A stretch of 5,370 nt of DNA from Escherichia phage GR8. The DNA lies in sequence record PQ551090.1. One strand, given 5' to 3'. The notes below the pieces were generated by a model that made no database searches, was not told where the DNA came from, and was given only the letters and a program-made list of their open reading frames with translations. Position 1 is the first letter of the stretch, and each line of letters starts with the position of its first letter. This document shows positions 1-5,370 of the stretch, one piece after another. Made by a program: the position numbers and the translations under genes.

Positions 1-1175
1 TCGCTGGCGATTCCTTCGAGATGGACGCCGTTGGCGCTCTCCGTCTTTCTCCATTGCGTCGTGGCCTTGCTATTGACTCTACTGTAGATATTTTTACTTT
101 TTATGTCCCTCATCGTCATGTTTATGGTGAACAGTGGATTAAGTTTATGAAGGATGGCGTTAACGCTTCTCCTCTTCCGACCGTTAACACTACTGGTTAT
201 ATTGACCATGCTGCTTTTCTTGGCACGATTAACCCTGATACCAATAAAATTCCTAAGCATTTGTTTCAGGGTTATTTGAATATCTATAACAACTATTTTA
301 AAGCGCCGTGGATGCCTGACCGCACCGAGGCTAACCCTAATGAGCTTAATGAAGATGATGTCCGTTATGGTTTCCGTTGCTGCCATCTTAAAAACATTTG
401 GACTGCTCCGCTTCCTCCTGAGACTGAGCTTTCTCGCCAAATGACGACTTCTACTACTTCTATTGACATTATGGGTCTGCAAGCTGCTTATGCTAATTTG
501 CATACTGACCAAGAACGTGATTACTTCATGCAGCGTTACCGTGATGTTATTTCTTCATTTGGAGGTAAAACCTCTTATGACGCTGACAACCGTCCTTTAC
601 TTGTCATGCGCTCTAATTTCTGGGCATCTGGCTATGATGTTGATGGAACTGACCAAACGTCGTTAGGCCAGTTTTCTGGTCGTGTTCAACAGACCTATAA
701 ACATTCTGTGCCGCGTTTTTTTGTTCCTGAGCACGGCACTATGTTTACTCTTGTGCTTGTTCGTTTTCCGCCTACTGCGACTAAAGAGATTCAGTACCTT
801 AATGCTAAAGGTGCTTTGACTTATACCGATATTGCTGGCGACCCTGCTTTGTATGGCAACTTGCCGCCGCGTGAAATTTCCATGAAGGATGTTTTCCGTT
901 CTGGTGATTCTTCTAAGAAGTTTAAGATTGCTGAGGGTCAATGGTATCGTTATGCGCCTTCTTATGTTTCTCCTGCATATCACCTCCTTGAAGGCTTCCC
1001 ATTTATTCAGGAACCGCCTTCTGGTGATTTGCAAGAACGCGTGCTTATTCGCCATCATGACTATGACCAGTGTTTCCAGTCCGTTCAGCTGTTGCAGTGG
1101 AATAGTCAGGTTAAATTTAATGTGACCGTTTATCGCAATCTGCCGACCACTCGCGATTCAATCATGACTTCGTGA
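1..1175 (+). CDS. F: Major capsid protein F, C-terminal 390 codons (5'-truncated at window edge; reading phase begins at nt 3; continues from the 5' piece at 5278..5370 across the circular junction)
   Basis: Open frame from window edge to TAA/TGA at 1173-1175; translation (…DSFEMDAVGALRLSPLRRGLAIDSTVDIFTFYVPHRHVYGEQWIKFMKDG…RDSIMTS) recognised as phiX174-type gpF; 31 + 5 missing + 1 + 390 codons = 427 aa, the known F length. Confidence 0.95.
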   Translation, partial: AGDSFEMDAVGALRLSPLRRGLAIDSTVDIFTFYVPHRHVYGEQWIKFMKDGVNASPLPTVNTTGYIDHAAFLGTINPDTNKIPKHLFQGYLNIYNNYFKAPWMPDRTEANPNELNEDDVRYGFRCCHLKNIWTAPLPPETELSRQMTTSTTSIDIMGLQAAYANLHTDQERDYFMQRYRDVISSFGGKTSYDADNRPLLVMRSNFWASGYDVDGTDQTSLGQFSGRVQQTYKHSVPRFFVPEHGTMFTLVLVRFPPTATKEIQYLNAKGALTYTDIAGDPALYGNLPPREISMKDVFRSGDSSKKFKIAEGQWYRYAPSYVSPAYHLLEGFPFIQEPPSGDLQERVLIRHHDYDQCFQSVQLLQWNSQVKFNVTVYRNLPTTRDSIMTS

Positions 1176-1285
1176 TAAAAGATTGAGTGTGAGGTTATAA
1201 CGCCGAAGCGGTAAAAATTTTAATTTTTGCCGCTGAGGGGTTGACCAAGCGAAGCGCGGTAGGTTTTCTGCTTAGGAGTTTAATC
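1176..1285 (+). promoter_or_regulatory. F-G intergenic region with AT-rich near-perfect hairpin (about 1207-1234, agcggtaaaaatt / aatttttgccgct); corresponds to the phiX174 complementary-strand origin / PriA (n-prime) primosome assembly site, and probably the weak post-F terminator/mRNA-stabilising hairpin
   Basis: Inverted repeat read directly from sequence; position between F stop and G start matches the known location of the phiX174 n-prime recognition site (established knowledge). Exact site boundaries not determined. Confidence 0.6.
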
Positions 1286-1813
1286 ATGTTTCAGACTTTT
1301 ATTTCTCGCCATAATTCAAACTTTTTTTCTGATAAGCTGGTTGCTAGTTCTGTCACTCCAGCTTCTTTAGCACCCGTTTTACAGACACCTAAAGCTACAT
1401 CGTCAACGTTATATTTTGATAGTTTGACGGTTAATGCTGGTAATGGTGGTTTTCTTCATTGCATTCAGATGGATACATCTGTCAACGCCGCTAATCAGGT
1501 TGTTTCTGTTGGTGCTGATATTGCTTTTGATGCCGACCCTAAATTTTTTGCCTGTTTGGTTCGCTTTGAGTCTTCTTCGGTTCCGACTACCCTTCCGACT
1601 GCCTATGATGTTTATCCTTTGGATGGTCGCCATGATGGTGGTTATTATACCGTCAAGGACTGTGTGACTATTGACGTCCTTCCCCGTACGCCGGGCAATA
1701 ATGTTTATGTTGGTTTCATGGTTTGGTCTAACTTTACCGTTACTAAATGCCGCGGATTGGTTTCGCTGAATCAGGTTATTAAAGAGATTATTTGTCTCCA
1801 GCCACTTAAGTGA
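1286..1813 (+). CDS. G: Major spike protein G (175 aa)
   Basis: ATG at 1286 preceded by AGGAG (1274-1278, 7-nt spacing); stop TGA 1811-1813; translation [19 protein letters not shown]… recognised as phiX174 gpG; length matches. The six-frame track starts at an upstream in-frame TTG (1241) that lacks an RBS. Confidence 0.95.
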
Positions 1814-1821
1814 GGTGATTT

Positions 1822-2808
1822 ATGTTTGGTGCTATTGCTGGCGGTATTGCCTCTGCTCTTGCTGGCGGCGCCATGTCTAAATTGTTTGGAGGCGGTCAAA
1901 AAGCCGCCTCCGGTGGCATTCAAGGTGATGTGCTTGCTACCGATAACAATACTGTAGGCATGGGTGATGCTGGTATTAAATCTGCCATTCAAGGCTCTAA
2001 TGTTCCCAACCCTGATGAGGCCGCACCTAATTTTGTTTCTGGTGCTATGGCTAAAGCTGGTAAAGGACTTCTTGAAGGTACGTTGCAGGCTGGCACTTCT
2101 GCCGTTTCTGATAAGTTGCTTGATTTGGTTGGACTTGGTGGCAAGTCTGTCGCTGATAAAGGAAAGGATACTCGTGATTATCTTGCTGCTGCATTTCCTG
2201 AGCTTAATGCTTGGGAGCGTGCTGGTGCTGGTGCTTCCTCTGCTGGTATGGTTGACGCCGGATTTGAGAATCAAAAAGAGCTTACTAAAATGCAACTGGA
2301 CAATCAGAAAGAGGTTGCCGAGATGCAAAATGAGACTCAAAAAGAGATTGCTGGCATTCAGTCGGCGACTTCACGCCAGAATACGAAAGACCAGGTATAT
2401 GCACAAAATGAGATGCTTGCTTATCAACAGAAGGAGTCTACTGCTCGCGTTGCGTCTATTATGGAAAATACTAATCTTTCCAAGCAACAGCAGGTTTCCG
2501 AGATTATGCGCCAGATGCTTACCCAAGCTCAAACGGCTGGTCAGTATTTTACCAATGACCAAATCAAAGAACTGACACGCAAGGTTAGTGCTGAGGTTGA
2601 CTTAGTTCATCAGCAAACGCAGAATCAGCGGTATGGTTCTTCTCATATTGGCGCTACTGCAAAGGATATTTCTAATGTCGTCACTGATGCTGCTTCTGGT
2701 GTGGTTGATATTTTTCATGGTATTGATAAAGCTGTTGCCGATACTTGGAACAATTTCTGGAAAGACGGTAAAGCTGATGGTATTGGCTCTAATTTGTCTA
2801 GGAAGTAA
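1822..2808 (+). CDS. H: Minor spike / DNA pilot protein H (328 aa)
   Basis: ATG at 1822 with GAGG 1812-1815 overlapping the G stop; glycine-rich N-terminus [25 protein letters not shown]… and Q-rich central region typical of phiX174 gpH; length matches. Confidence 0.95.
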
Positions 2809-2812
2809 CCGT

Positions 2813-2846
2813 CAGGATTGACACCTTTCTAATTGTATGATTTCAT
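2813..2846 (+). promoter_or_regulatory. Putative gene A promoter (P_A) region; perfect -35 hexamer TTGACA at 2818-2823, -10 element not confidently assigned (candidates TATGAT 2836-2841, TTTCAT 2841-2846)
   Basis: TTGACA seen directly in the H-A intergenic spacer; phiX174 is known to have a promoter for A here. Spacing to the candidate -10 hexamers is non-ideal, so the exact elements are uncertain. Confidence 0.5.
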
Positions 2847-2871
2847 GCCTCCAAACTTTGGAGGCTTTTTT
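2847..2871 (+). terminator. Hairpin plus T-run (gcctccaa-act-ttggaggc followed by TTTTTT) immediately upstream of the gene A ATG; intrinsic-terminator-like structure (T_H) whose 3' arm contains the gene A Shine-Dalgarno GGAGG
   Basis: Perfect 7-8 bp inverted repeat 2847-2865 followed by six T (2866-2871), then ATG at 2872; read directly from sequence. Terminator function is inferred from structure and from the known post-H terminator of phiX174. Confidence 0.65.
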
Positions 2872-4413
2872 ATGGTTCGTTCTTATTACCCTTCTGAATG
2901 TCACGCTGATTATTTTGACTTTGAGCGTATTGAGGCTCTTAAACCTGCTATTGAGGCTTGTGGCATTTCTACTCTTTCTCAATCCCCTATGCTTGGCTTC
3001 TATAAGCAGATGGATAACCGCATCAAGCTCTTGGAAGAGATTCTGTCTTTTCGTATGCAGGGCGTTGAGTTCGATAATGGTGATATGTATGTTGACGGCC
3101 ATAAAGCTGCTTCTGATGTTCGTGACGAGTTTGTATCTGTTACTGAGAAGTTAATGGATGAATTGGCACAATGCTACAATGTGCTCCCCCAACTTGATAT
3201 TAATAACACTATAGACCACCGCCCCGAAGGGGACGAAAAATGGTTTTTAGAGAACGAGAAGACGGTTACGCAGTTTTGCCGTAAGCTGGCTGCTGAACGC
3301 CCTCTTAAGGATATTCGCGATGAGTATAATTACCTCAAAAAGAAAGGTATTAAGGATGAGTGTTCAAGATTGCTGGAGGCCTCCACTATGAAATCGCGTA
3401 GAGGCTTCACTATTCAGCGTTTGATGAATGCAATGCGCCAGGCTCATGCCGATGGTTGGTTTATCGTTTTTGACACTCTCACGTTGGCTGACGACCGATT
3501 AGAGGCGTTTTATGATAACCCCAATGCTTTGCGTGACTATTTTCGTGATATTGGTCGTATGGTTCTTGCTGCCGAGGGTCGCAAGGCTAATGACTCACAC
3601 GCTGACTGCTATCAGTATTTTTGTGTGCCTGAGTATGGTACAGCTAATGGCCGTCTTCATTTCCATGCGGTGCACTTTATGCGGACACTTCCTTCAGGTA
3701 GCGTTGACCCTAATTTTGGTCGTCGGGTACGCAATCGCCGCCAGTTAAATAGCTTGCAAAATACGTGGCCTTATGGTTACAGTATGCCCATCGCAGTTCG
3801 CTACACGCAGGACGCCTTTTCACGTTCTGGTTGGTTGTGGCCTGTTGATGCTAAAGGTGAGCCGCTTAAAGCCACCAGTTATATGGCTGTTGGTTTCTAT
3901 GTGGCTAAATATGTTAACAAAAAGTCAGATATGGACCTTGCTGCTAAAGGTCTAGGAGCTAAAGAATGGAACAACTCACTAAAAACCAAGCTGTCGCTAC
4001 TTCCCAAGAAGCTGTTCAGAATCAGAATGAGCCGCAACTTCGGGATGAAAATGCTCACAATGACAAATCTGTCCATGGAATGCTTAATCCAACTTACCAA
4101 GCTGGGTTACGACGCGACGCCGTTCAACCAGATATTGAAGCAGAACGCAAAAAGAGAGATGAGATTGAGGCTGGCAAAAGTTACTGTAGCCGACGTTTTG
4201 GCGGCGCAACCTGTGACGACAAATCTGCTCAAATTTATGCGCGCTTCGATAAAAATGATTGGCGTATCCAACCTGCAGAGTTTTATCGCTTCCATGACGC
4301 AGAAGTTAACACTTTCGGATATTTCTGATGAGTCGAAAAATTATCTTGATAAAGCAGGAATTACTACTGCTTGTTTACGAATTAAATCGAAGTGGACTGC
4401 TGGCGGAAAATGA
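2872..4413 (+). CDS. A: Replication initiation protein A (rolling-circle endonuclease/ligase, 513 aa)
   Basis: ATG at 2872 preceded by GGAGG (2860-2864); stop TGA 4411-4413; translation [31 protein letters not shown]… recognised as phiX174 gpA; contains the origin nick sequence at 3190-3219; length matches. Track ORF begins at upstream TTG 2833, which falls inside the terminator hairpin region and is not favoured. Confidence 0.95.
3190..3219 (+). other. Viral (+) strand origin of replication: conserved 30-nt gpA recognition/nick sequence CAACTTGATATTAATAACACTATAGACCAC; nick expected between G3196 and A3197
   Basis: Exact 30-mer present in the sequence inside gene A; this is the well-characterised phiX174-type origin (established knowledge). 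Confidence 0.9.
3388..4413 (+). CDS. A*: A* protein (341 aa), in-frame internal translation start within gene A
   Basis: ATG at 3388 in the A frame, preceded by GGAGG (3375-3379, 8-nt spacing); begins [10 protein letters not shown]…; matches known phiX174 A* length and start context. Confidence 0.8.
3750..3790 (+). promoter_or_regulatory. Putative gene B promoter (P_B) inside gene A; candidate -35 TTGCAA (3754-3759) and -10 TACAGT (3778-3783), 18-nt spacer
   Basis: Hexamers read from sequence; phiX174 is known to have a promoter for B within A upstream of the B start, but the exact position recalled from memory is approximate. Confidence 0.3.
3966..4328 (+). CDS. B: Internal scaffolding protein B (120 aa), encoded entirely within gene A in a different reading frame
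   Basis: ATG at 3966 preceded by AGGAG (3954-3958, 7-nt spacing); translation [120 protein letters not shown] recognised as gpB; stop TGA 4326-4328. Confidence 0.95.
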
Positions 4414-4498
4414 GAAAATTCGACCTATCCTTGCGCAGCTCGAGAAGCTCTTACTTTGCGACCTTTCGCCATCAACTAACGATTCTGTCAAAAACTGA
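4328..4498 (+). CDS. K: Protein K (56 aa), small protein overlapping the 3' end of A and the 5' part of C
   Basis: ATG at 4328 shares its A with the B stop codon (TGATG); open frame of 56 codons to TGA 4496-4498 ([56 protein letters not shown]); matches phiX174 K in position and length. Absent from the ORF track only because it is under 60 aa. Confidence 0.85.
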
Positions 4499-4670
4499 CG
4501 CGTTGGATGAGGAGAAGTGGCTTAATATGCTTGGCACGTTCGTCAAGGACTGGTTTAGATATGAGTCACATTTTGTTCACGGTAGAGATTCTCTTGTTGA
4601 CATTTTAAAAGAGCGTGGATTACTATCTGAGTCCGATGCTGTTCAACCACTAATAGGTAAAAAATCATGA
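4410..4670 (+). CDS. C: Protein C (86 aa), DNA maturation / switch from dsDNA to ssDNA synthesis
   Basis: ATG at 4410 overlaps the A stop codon (ATGA, 4410-4413); stop TGA 4668-4670; translation [86 protein letters not shown]; track ORF begins at an upstream in-frame GTG (4392). Confidence 0.9.
4597..4635 (+). promoter_or_regulatory. Gene D promoter (P_D) inside gene C: -35 TTGACA (4597-4602), -10 TACTAT (4621-4626), 18-nt spacer, predicted start about 4633-4635
   Basis: Consensus -35 and good -10 read directly; the predicted start coincides with the recalled phiX174 D-transcript start once window coordinates are converted using the F/A/D gene anchors. Confidence 0.7.
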
Positions 4671-5125
4671 GTCAAGTTACTGAACAATCCGTACGTTTCC
4701 AGACCGCGCTGGCCTCCATTAAGCTGATTCAGGCTTCTGCCGTTTTGGATTTAACCGAAGATGATTTCGATTTTCTGACGAGTAACAAGGTTTGGATCGC
4801 CACTGACCGCTCTCGTGCTCGTCGCTGCGTTGAGGCTTGCGTTTATGGTACGCTGGACTTTGTGGGATATCCTCGCTTTCCTGCTCCTGTTGAGTTTATT
4901 GCTGCCGTCATTGCTTATTATGTTCATCCCGTCAACATTCAAACGGCCTGTCTCATCATGGAAGGCGCTGAATTTACGGAAAACATTATTAATGGCGTCG
5001 AGCGTCCGGTTAAAGCCGCTGAGTTGTTCGCGTTTACCTTGCGTGTACGCGCAGGAAACACTGACGTTCTTACTGACGCAGAAGAAAATGTGCGTCAAAA
5101 ATTACGCGCAGAAGGAGTGATGTAA
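4667..5125 (+). CDS. D: External scaffolding protein D (152 aa)
   Basis: ATG at 4667 overlaps the C stop (ATGA, 4667-4670); stop TAA 5123-5125 overlaps the J start (TAATG); translation [152 protein letters not shown] recognised as gpD. Confidence 0.95.
   Translation: MSQVTEQSVRFQTALASIKLIQASAVLDLTEDDFDFLTSNKVWIATDRSRARRCVEACVYGTLDFVGYPRFPAPVEFIAAVIAYYVHPVNIQTACLIMEGAEFTENIINGVERPVKAAELFAFTLRVRAGNTDVLTDAEENVRQKLRAEGVM
4845..5120 (+). CDS. E: Lysis protein E (91 aa; single-gene lysis protein, inhibitor of host MraY), encoded within gene D in the +1 frame
   Basis: ATG at 4845 with GAGG 4832-4835 upstream; N-terminal hydrophobic segment MVRWTLWDILAFLLLLSLLLPSLLIMFIPSTF… recognised as phiX174-type E; stop at 5118-5120; track ORF starts at an upstream in-frame ATG (4815), but the known E start is the MVRW methionine. 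Confidence 0.9.
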   Translation: MVRWTLWDILAFLLLLSLLLPSLLIMFIPSTFKRPVSSWKALNLRKTLLMASSVRLKPLSCSRLPCVYAQETLTFLLTQKKMCVKNYAQKE

Positions 5126-5241
5126 TGTCTAAAGGTAAAAAACGTTCTGGCGCTCGCCCCGGTCGTCCGCAGCCGTTGCGAGGCACTAAAGGTAAGCGTA
5201 AAGGCGCTCGCCTTTGGTATGTAGGTGGTCAACAATTTTAA
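5125..5241 (+). CDS. J: Small basic DNA-binding / packaging protein J (38 aa)
   Basis: ATG at 5125 preceded by AGGAG (5113-5117, 7-nt spacing); highly basic translation MSKGKKRSGARPGRPQPLRGTKGKRKGARLWYVGGQQF; stop TAA 5239-5241. Below the 60-aa cutoff of the ORF track. Confidence 0.9.
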   Translation: MSKGKKRSGARPGRPQPLRGTKGKRKGARLWYVGGQQF

Positions 5242-5245
5242 TTGC

Positions 5246-5261
5246 AGGGGCTTCGGCCCCT
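5246..5261 (+). terminator. J-F intergenic hairpin AGGGGC-UUCG-GCCCCU (6-bp GC stem closed on a C(UUCG)G tetraloop); corresponds to the weak post-J terminator / mRNA-stabilising hairpin of phiX174
   Basis: Perfect inverted repeat with TTCG loop seen directly; no downstream T-run (followed by TACTTGAGG, where GAGG 5267-5270 is the F Shine-Dalgarno). Terminator efficiency inferred to be low. Confidence 0.6.
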
Positions 5262-5277
5262 TACTTGAGGATAAATT

Positions 5278-5370
5278 ATGTCTAATGTTCAAACTGGCGC
5301 CGAGCGTATGCCGCATGACCTTTCTCATCTTGGCTTCCTTGCTGGTCAGATTGGTCGTCTTATTACCATT
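5278..5370 (+). CDS. F: Major capsid protein F, N-terminal 31 codons (3'-truncated at window edge; continues at nt 1 after the circular junction)
   Basis: ATG at 5278 preceded by GAGG (5267-5270, 7-nt spacing); translation MSNVQTGAERMPHDLSHLGFLAGQIGRLITI matches the gpF N-terminus. Confidence 0.9.
   Translation, partial: MSNVQTGAERMPHDLSHLGFLAGQIGRLITI

Follow-up and report, generated by a model that had tools for sequence, protein, structure and literature searches.

The closest described relatives of the DNA analysed here are the wild coliphage NC51 (DQ079891.1), S13 (AF274751.1 / M14428.1) and phiX174 (NC_001422.1). NC51 has a 5386-nt architecture with 11 genes at coordinates identical to those found here, and S13 shares both this architecture and the species. 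The window, as we call the whole stretch of 5,370 nt that was analysed, matched these genomes over 100% of its length, with identities of 98.4% to NC51, 98.1% to S13 and 97.9% to NC_001422 (97.9–98.0% across phiX174 records). At a species threshold of at least 95% genome-wide nucleotide identity, as cited in bioRxiv 10.1101/2025.09.12.675911, it falls within Sinsheimervirus phiX174 (Microviridae, Bullavirinae). We regard it as highly likely that the window represents all but 16 nt of the genome of a strain of this species that occurs in nature, with NC51, S13 and phiX174 as its closest relatives. It is a new strain of a known species and holds no new gene, element or arrangement. The original prediction had called it a known phage, which was right as to the species; within that species it is a separate strain, which differs from phiX174 itself by 113 nt.

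Global alignment to the rotated phiX174, NC51 and S13 genomes gave 113, 84 and 104 mismatches, respectively. The window corresponds to positions 1110-5386 and then 1-1093 of phiX174 (NC_001422, whose positions are given below as record positions), with zero internal indels. This collinear, indel-free match bears out the earlier claim, made from the letters alone along with a proposal to align the window to phiX174 and S13, of a nearly complete, circularly permuted phiX174-like microvirus genome. The sole alignment gap lies in gene F, between the last and the first base of the window. The 16 reference bases that the window lacks there (record 1094-1109, TCAACTACTCCGGTTA) do not vary among the 21 relatives compared. 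The final base of the window is record position 1093, and the window opens with the second base of F codon 37. What F lacks is codons 32-36 together with the initial base of codon 37; translation of window positions 3-47 gives AGDSFEMDAVGALRL. The break inside gene F had been predicted, with F codons 1-31 (...GRLITI) at one end and the other part of F at the opposite end, together with frames that join if 16 nt (5 codons + 1 nt) are missing from a circle of about 5386 nt, and the alignment showed this arithmetic to be exact. The gap thus points to a circle of 5386 nt. Terminal overlap is absent, the longest match of a suffix to a prefix being 1 nt. Direct joining of the two ends shifts the frame of F and produces a stop at codon 60, and a true 16-nt deletion was rejected because the essential capsid protein would be truncated there. 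The gap in this essential gene would rather be a product of linearisation, assembly or trimming than a biological deletion.

One strand carries all 11 genes (A, A*, B, K, C, D, E, J, F, G and H), whose order and overlaps are canonical and whose coordinates are equivalent to those of NC_001422, in agreement with the original prediction of a whole phiX174 gene complement. The ten genes other than F are complete, each with an ATG start, no internal stop and canonical length, and in the Pfam profile matches the gene products scored far above the curated cut-off of their families (Table 1).

Table 1. Coordinates of genes and other features in the window (position 1 is its first base; record positions are those of NC_001422)
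Feature	Position	Strand	Product or nature	Remarks
Gene F, 3' part	1..1175	+	Major capsid protein	Codon 37 second base to stop; record 1110-2284; translation starts AGDSFEMD; Pfam Phage_F E=1e-154
F-G intergenic region	1176..1285	.	110 nt	Same base for base in phiX174, NC51 and S13
Gene G	1286..1813	+	Major spike protein, 175 aa	Pfam Phage_G E=2e-121
Gene H	1822..2808	+	DNA pilot / minor spike protein, 328 aa	Pfam Microvir_H E=5e-214
H-A intergenic region	2809..2871	.		Exactly as in NC51; 6 differences from phiX174
Gene A	2872..4413	+	Rolling-circle replication initiator, 513 aa	Pfam Phage_GPA E=1e-62
Origin of viral-strand synthesis	3190..3219	+	30 nt, CAACTTGATATTAATAACACTATAGACCAC	In gene A; rep_origin annotated at record 4306
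Gene A*	3388..4413	+	In-frame internal start of A, 341 aa	ATG conserved, equivalent to record 4497
Gene B	3966..4328	+	Internal scaffolding protein, 120 aa	Other frame within gene A; Pfam Phage_B
Gene K	4328..4498	+	56 aa	Pfam Protein_K; protein as in phiX174
Gene C	4410..4670	+	DNA maturation, 86 aa	Pfam Phage_C; protein as in phiX174
Promoter-like site	4597..4626	+	TTGACA-18-TACTAT	Consensus scan; region as in phiX174
Gene D	4667..5125	+	External scaffolding protein, 152 aa	Pfam gpD E=3e-98
Gene E	4845..5120	+	Lysis protein, 91 aa	Inside gene D, +1 frame; Pfam Microvir_lysis
Gene J	5125..5241	+	DNA-binding core protein, 38 aa	Pfam Microvir_J; protein as in phiX174
J-F intergenic region	5242..5277	.	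With hairpin GGGGCTTCGGCCCC	Same in phiX174, NC51 and S13
Gene F, 5' part	5278..5370	+	Codons 1-31	Translation MSNVQTGAERMPHDLSHLGFLAGQIGRLITI, ends ...GRLITI

A rolling-circle replication module is present, formed by the origin in gene A and an HUH endonuclease with paired catalytic tyrosines. The HUH motif of protein A is HFHAVH (residues 263-268) and its catalytic-tyrosine motif YVAKY (residues 343-347), and the 30-nt origin is identical in the window, phiX174, NC51, S13 and PJNS001. Three of the four intergenic regions (J-F, F-G and G-H) are identical to those of phiX174. We take the F-G region to carry the F terminator hairpin and the complementary-strand priming (PriA/n') site, as in phiX174. 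In the H-A region a terminator-like hairpin at 2847-2865 precedes a T run, and window position 2853 is the equivalent of the transcription start annotated at record 3962 in NC_001422. The promoter-like site found by consensus scan stands at the position of the phiX174 D promoter and is presumably PD.

The 113 nt that separate the window from phiX174 are similar to the 119 nt that separate S13 from phiX174. In a neighbour-joining tree the window was placed within the clade of S13, NC51, phiX174 and WA10, with S13 as its sister. By overall distance NC51 comes closest (84 differences, 98.4%), as it also does across F-G-H. The B protein is identical to the gpB of both NC51 and ID45, and the H-A region is also shared with NC51; differences from NC51 at the amino acid level amount to 6 in A, 2 in F, 2 in G, 3 in H and 4 in E. 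S13 is nearer than NC51 in the G region (window 1201-1800), where its G protein differs by a single residue, and in the K/C region. It also comes closest over the A-to-J half (98.4%) and matches the window exactly over 4176-4716, but its 104 substitutions include 8 amino acid changes in H and 6 in F. With phiX174 the window shares gene order, gene lengths, origin, the J-F, F-G and G-H regions and the K, C, D and J proteins, the D protein being the same even though 12 nt differ in its gene. The substitutions relative to phiX174 change 8 residues in F, 5 in G, 5 in H, 6 in A and 5 in E (every one of the changes in E is silent in D), and six of them fall in the H-A region.

The differences from phiX174 are spread over the genome and are overwhelmingly synonymous, with dN/dS values of 0.05-0.09 against NC51, S13 and phiX174 in non-overlapping coding sequence. 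Most of them (97/113) are alleles present in other wild isolates. Sixteen alleles of the window are missing from all 20 natural relatives, and natural genomes scored likewise had between 5 and 33 such alleles. These 16 are scattered from window position 11 to 3603; 15 are transitions, and they comprise 9 synonymous changes and 7 conservative replacements. DNA damage or chemical conversion was considered as the source of a C-to-T excess and rejected, because the spectrum is no different in S13 and NC51 and T-to-C changes occur almost as often. Along the window the nearest relative switches among NC51, S13, phiX174, ID45, NC5/NC16 and WA10, and the best breakpoint was located between 2766 and 2988, near the H/A junction (permutation p=0.0024). 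The same kind of conflict was found among NC51, S13 and phiX174 themselves, so reticulation belongs to the group as a whole, and a shifting nearest relative with a breakpoint is as expected of a recombining phage population.

Searches for the same lineage elsewhere were also carried out. The exact A, E, G and H proteins and the rebuilt F protein were absent from about 15 billion proteins. A 41-mer and a 27-mer carrying window-specific alleles were both absent from viral, genome and metagenome contig collections, which therefore yielded no independent natural sighting. Megablast against complete E. coli genomes gave no match, which argues against a prophage or an integrated copy.

Carry-over of the Illumina PhiX control into the sample, a possibility raised together with the original prediction, would be an obvious source of a genome of this kind. 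Such carry-over is very common, with 1230 scaffolds from 1041 isolate genomes flagged (Mukherjee et al., PMC4511556), and PLSDB includes six 5386-nt "plasmids" (from Vibrio, Cellulomonas, Edwardsiella and E. coli) whose match to the window equals that of phiX174. Among the IMG/VR relatives of G, the only locus found was a copy of spike-in phiX174 whose ends overlap by 497 nt. This contig and the Vibrio "plasmid" were used as benchmarks (n=2 independent copies): they differ by 5-6 nt from NC_001422 and by 1 nt from one another, but by 112-113 nt from the window, which is not nearly identical to the sequencing control. As the differences are genome-wide, mostly synonymous and in 97/113 cases found in wild isolates, their pattern is unlike that of sequencing error. 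At the level of sequence, a spike-in origin is refuted, and we give it practically no credence. Derivation from phiX174 or S13 by laboratory evolution or engineering is hardly more credible, despite the well over 100 laboratory phiX174 lines in the phage collection. No laboratory phiX174 record comes closer to the window than wild type, all having 97.9-98.0% identity to it, and no record of passage from a known ancestor to the window sequence was found in that collection. Synthetic S13 variants exist and are reported to have only a few engineered changes from S13 (PMC3399791), against the 104 nt between the window and S13. The low dN/dS is likewise not a signature of short-term adaptation. Somewhat less remote, but still improbable, is a chimeric consensus of at least two co-occurring natural phiX174-like strains, in which the mosaic would be an assembly artefact. 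The change of nearest relative at a significant breakpoint is what such a consensus would produce, and a contig 16 nt short of closure without terminal overlap fits a break at a polymorphic site. However, the only segment nearly identical to a known strain is the universally conserved B/K/C region, the unattested alleles do not form one block, all overlapping reading frames are intact, and the like conflict among NC51, S13 and phiX174 points to group-wide reticulation.

Equally improbable, in our judgement, is a machine-designed or other synthetic phiX174-like genome, for example a candidate from the Evo genome language model or an assembly from the sequencing of such phages. [quoted passage not shown] The window fits these figures, with 84 changes, 98.4% identity, NC51 as nearest genome and a mosaic of natural alleles, so that the Evo-Phi series resembles it both in distance to the nearest natural genome and in its nearest relatives; in addition, the public collections searched held no exact counterpart. 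Nevertheless, in the parts of the design table that were compared (first 400 nt per genome plus each assembly fragment) the window-specific alleles had 0 occurrences, and the reference alleles at the same sites had 149, 17, 36 and 8. The two 5386-nt candidates that were compared, from a table with seven occurrences of "5386", were clearly unlike the window. In length (5386), GC content (44.69%) and identity to phiX174 (97.88%, 114 differences), the design umi194 agrees with the values expected of the window once completed, but its sequence is plainly different and we attribute the agreement to coincidence. Unlike the reported design hotspots, the J protein of the window is unchanged, its intergenic regions are natural and it has no indel. 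Designs start at phiX174 position 1, against 1110 for the window, and the number and spectrum of unattested alleles are within the natural range. A milder version of one such improbable reading would be that the unattested replacements F A157V and A288V, G A152V, and H A110V, I165V and M251L mark a host-range variant. If the window were nevertheless a design or a synthetic mosaic in a public collection, designed phage genomes would already be inseparable from wild strains by ordinary sequence criteria.

For a natural strain of Sinsheimervirus phiX174, which is the reading we favour, the circularity, ssDNA nature, viability and host of the phage are inferred. Its biology would be that of phiX174, with a genome in the form of a plus-strand ssDNA circle of about 5386 nt. 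Protein A would nick the conserved 30-nt origin and drive rolling-circle replication, B and D would scaffold a procapsid of F, G and H, C and J would package the DNA, and E would lyse the cell. The divergence of about 2% from phiX174 probably represents natural strain divergence under purifying selection, with segments reassorted among related strains by recombination. The biological interest of one more strain of a very well-understood virus is small, and the window is best seen as an added data point for the reticulate, recombining wild populations of phiX174-group coliphages. There is also a practical side, since contamination filters set at 90% or more identity to PhiX (one such screen is that of PMC4511556) would discard this genome as an artefact. 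The count of differences separates the two cases cleanly, with 5-6 nt in real carry-over and more than 100 nt in the window.

A megablast search of 50,697 phage records returned 161 records of phiX174-group genomes matching the full length of the window at 95–99% identity, with the wild coliphage NC51 as the top match (98.4%), followed by S13 (98.0–98.1%) and about 140 phiX174 records (97.9–98.0%). The final 30 bases of the window end at position 1093 of the phiX174 reference (NC_001422), and the references were rotated to this position for global alignment. The rotated alignment had no internal gaps, its sole gap being 16 reference bases between the end and the start of the window. Such a gapless, collinear match over the full window bears out the original prediction of a near-complete, circularly permuted phiX174-like genome. 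The species is the known Sinsheimervirus phiX174, of which the window represents a strain that is new and natural. A prophage or integrated copy is unsupported, because the search of complete E. coli genomes gave no match.

Genes A, A*, B, K, C, D, E, J, G and H were found at coordinates equivalent to the NC_001422 annotation, each with an ATG start, canonical length and no internal stops. All products scored far above the curated Pfam cut-off, the families matched being Phage_GPA, Phage_B, Protein_K, Phage_C, gpD, Microvir_lysis, Microvir_J, Phage_G, Microvir_H and Phage_F, and the window carries no additional or rearranged elements relative to phiX174. Base for base, the window shares with phiX174 the 30-nt origin of viral-strand synthesis and the J–F, F–G and G–H intergenic regions; its H–A intergenic region is that of NC51, with 6 differences from phiX174. 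A terminator-like hairpin in this region has a CT loop in the window, NC51 and S13 but TC in phiX174 and PJNS001, with an unchanged stem. Protein A contains an HUH motif and a tyrosine pair and, by analogy with phiX174, would carry out rolling-circle replication from the origin; likewise, the procapsid would be assembled on B and D scaffolds, C and J would act in packaging, and E in lysis.

Coordinates of features in the window, in protein A and in the phiX174 reference
Feature	Window position	Other coordinates	Detail
Gene F, translated stretch after the gap	3–47		AGDSFEMDAVGALRL
Open frame inside F	663–1058 (-)		131 aa
Six-site pattern, gene G	1486–1663
Open frame inside H	1771–2340 (-)		189 aa
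Best breakpoint	between 2766 and 2988
H–A intergenic hairpin	2847–2865		GCCTCCAAA-CT-TTGGAGGC
Gene E, inside gene D	4845–5120
Gene F, first segment	5278–5370	F residues 1–31	ends ...GRLITI
Absent bases		NC_001422 1094–1109	TCAACTACTCCGGTTA
HUH motif, protein A		residues 263–268	HFHAVH
Tyrosine pair, protein A		residues 343–347	YVAKY

Protein E shows five amino acid changes with respect to phiX174 (T9I, N60S, T82M, V88A and R89Q). All five are silent in the D frame, the overlapping D protein being unchanged, and therefore it is the embedded gene that takes up the variation. For the two long open frames on the complementary strand, no evidence of their being genes was found; the synthetic-genome record MN385565.1 labels many such conserved ORFs 'determined not to code'.

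Translation of both ends of the window reproduced exactly the predicted split of gene F, in its coordinates, its frames and the loss of five codons plus one nucleotide, so described from sequence alone. F is intact except for these 16 nt, which are invariant in 21 of the 21 relatives compared. There is no terminal overlap between the window ends, and joining them directly produces a frameshift in this essential capsid gene, with a stop at codon 60. The gap probably stems from linearisation, assembly or trimming of the sequence, and the actual genome would therefore be a 5386-nt circle.

That the sequence could be a sequencing spike-in, as had also been proposed, was not borne out by comparison with two independent benchmarks of real PhiX carry-over, a 5386-nt Vibrio inusitatus 'plasmid' (PLSDB) and a 5883-nt IMG/VR contig with terminal overlap. 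The two copies lie 5 and 6 nt from NC_001422 and are separated from each other by a single nucleotide; their distances from the window are 112 and 113 nt. Judged by nucleotide distance, the window is not spike-in contamination but a fourth lineage of similar depth within the tight S13/NC51/phiX174 cluster, because its distances are comparable to those of phiX174 from S13 (119 nt) and from NC51 (92 nt). The genome itself is of low interest and the main lesson is practical: PhiX filters based on an identity threshold, such as one of 90% (PMC4511556), would wrongly throw it out, and true carry-over can be told from wild relatives by counting how many positions differ from the control.

The divergence of the window looks natural. 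Its differences are evenly distributed along the genome, and dN/dS in non-overlapping coding sequence was 0.05 versus NC51 and 0.09 versus both S13 and phiX174. Proteins D, J, K and C are identical to those of phiX174 despite 12, 4, 0 and 2 nt changes, respectively. Against a panel of 20 genomes (16 wild isolates, ID1 to WA11, DQ079880-95, with S13, phiX174, PJNS001 and Shigella phage SGF3), only 16 window alleles were unattested, compared with 5–33 for natural genomes treated in the same way. Fifteen of these alleles are transitions; nine are synonymous and seven are conservative replacements (F A157V, F A288V, G A152V, H A110V, H I165V, H M251L and A P155L). DNA damage was rejected as the cause of the viral-strand C–T and T–C bias, since S13 and NC51 have the same bias.

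A neighbour-joining tree placed the window within the S13/NC51/phiX174/WA10 clade. The phylogenetic signal was reticulate, with four-taxon informative sites tying the F–G–H half to NC51 and the A-to-J half to S13 (permutation p=0.0024 for the best breakpoint), and half-by-half megablast concurred (NC51 98.4% and S13 98.4%, respectively). The nearest genome per 600-nt interval alternates among NC51, S13, phiX174, ID45, NC5/NC16 and WA10. Comparable conflicts exist among the reference genomes, such as a cluster of outgroup-like alleles of NC51 in gene G, and the signal fits recombination inside a natural population. Rokyta et al. are said to have described in 2006 recombination in a natural population of these coliphages. 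In gene G, six sites within 180 nt follow one pattern, with the derived allele in the window, phiX174 and S13 and the outgroup (PJNS001/SGF3) allele in NC51, suggesting that NC51's own G segment came from a more distant lineage.

Other origins were weighed against that of a natural strain. Phages of phiX174 type designed with a genome language model (Evo) carry 67–392 changes from the nearest natural genome, with NC51 and S13 among the nearest, vary in length and have their hotspots in gene J and regulatory elements (bioRxiv 10.1101/2025.09.12.675911). The window's 84 changes versus NC51 fall inside this range, and the absence of any counterpart of the lineage from the protein, viral, genome and metagenome contig collections searched also favours such a machine-designed genome, which we nevertheless consider very unlikely. 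The window is the opposite of the designs in J, regulatory elements and length; within the first 400 nt of each design genome and each assembly fragment, window-specific alleles occurred 0 times and the reference alleles 149, 17, 36 and 8 times; and the two 5386-nt designs whose sequences were compared with it there did not match. A chimeric consensus of co-occurring strains has a similarly slim chance, and a laboratory-evolved line is more improbable still, every laboratory record being 2% distant from the window.

One design listed in File S1, umi194 (length 5386, GC 44.6899%, 97.8834% identity to phiX174), has the values expected of the window once its 16 absent bases are filled in, provided that these bases add one AT-to-GC change relative to phiX174. 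The identity of this design with the window was rejected, the sequence, as far as that source displays it, being clearly different despite equal summary statistics; such statistics by themselves cannot identify a phiX174-group genome.

Apparent carry-over of the phiX174 control was also noted in GenBank (MZ417522.1, positions 169–5631 of 24,953; MT947439.1; PP417747.1), under labels including Mycolicibacterium phage, Protaetiibacter phage and 'Enterobacteria phage ST5386', and in PLSDB (NZ_AP024880.1, NZ_AP024868.1, NZ_AP024892.1, NZ_AP028091.1, NZ_AP026443.1 and NZ_OR345925.1), as Vibrio, Edwardsiella, Cellulomonas and E. coli plasmids. These records are 97.9–98.0% identical to the window, the same as phiX174; the Vibrio inusitatus record is the sole candidate among them that was compared directly with NC_001422 (5 nt). 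Finally, the SGF3 record (MN266305.1), a standard 5386-nt phiX174-type genome, lacks annotated F, J, B, K and E and has two 'hypothetical proteins' on the complementary strand, which looks like an artefact of automatic annotation.
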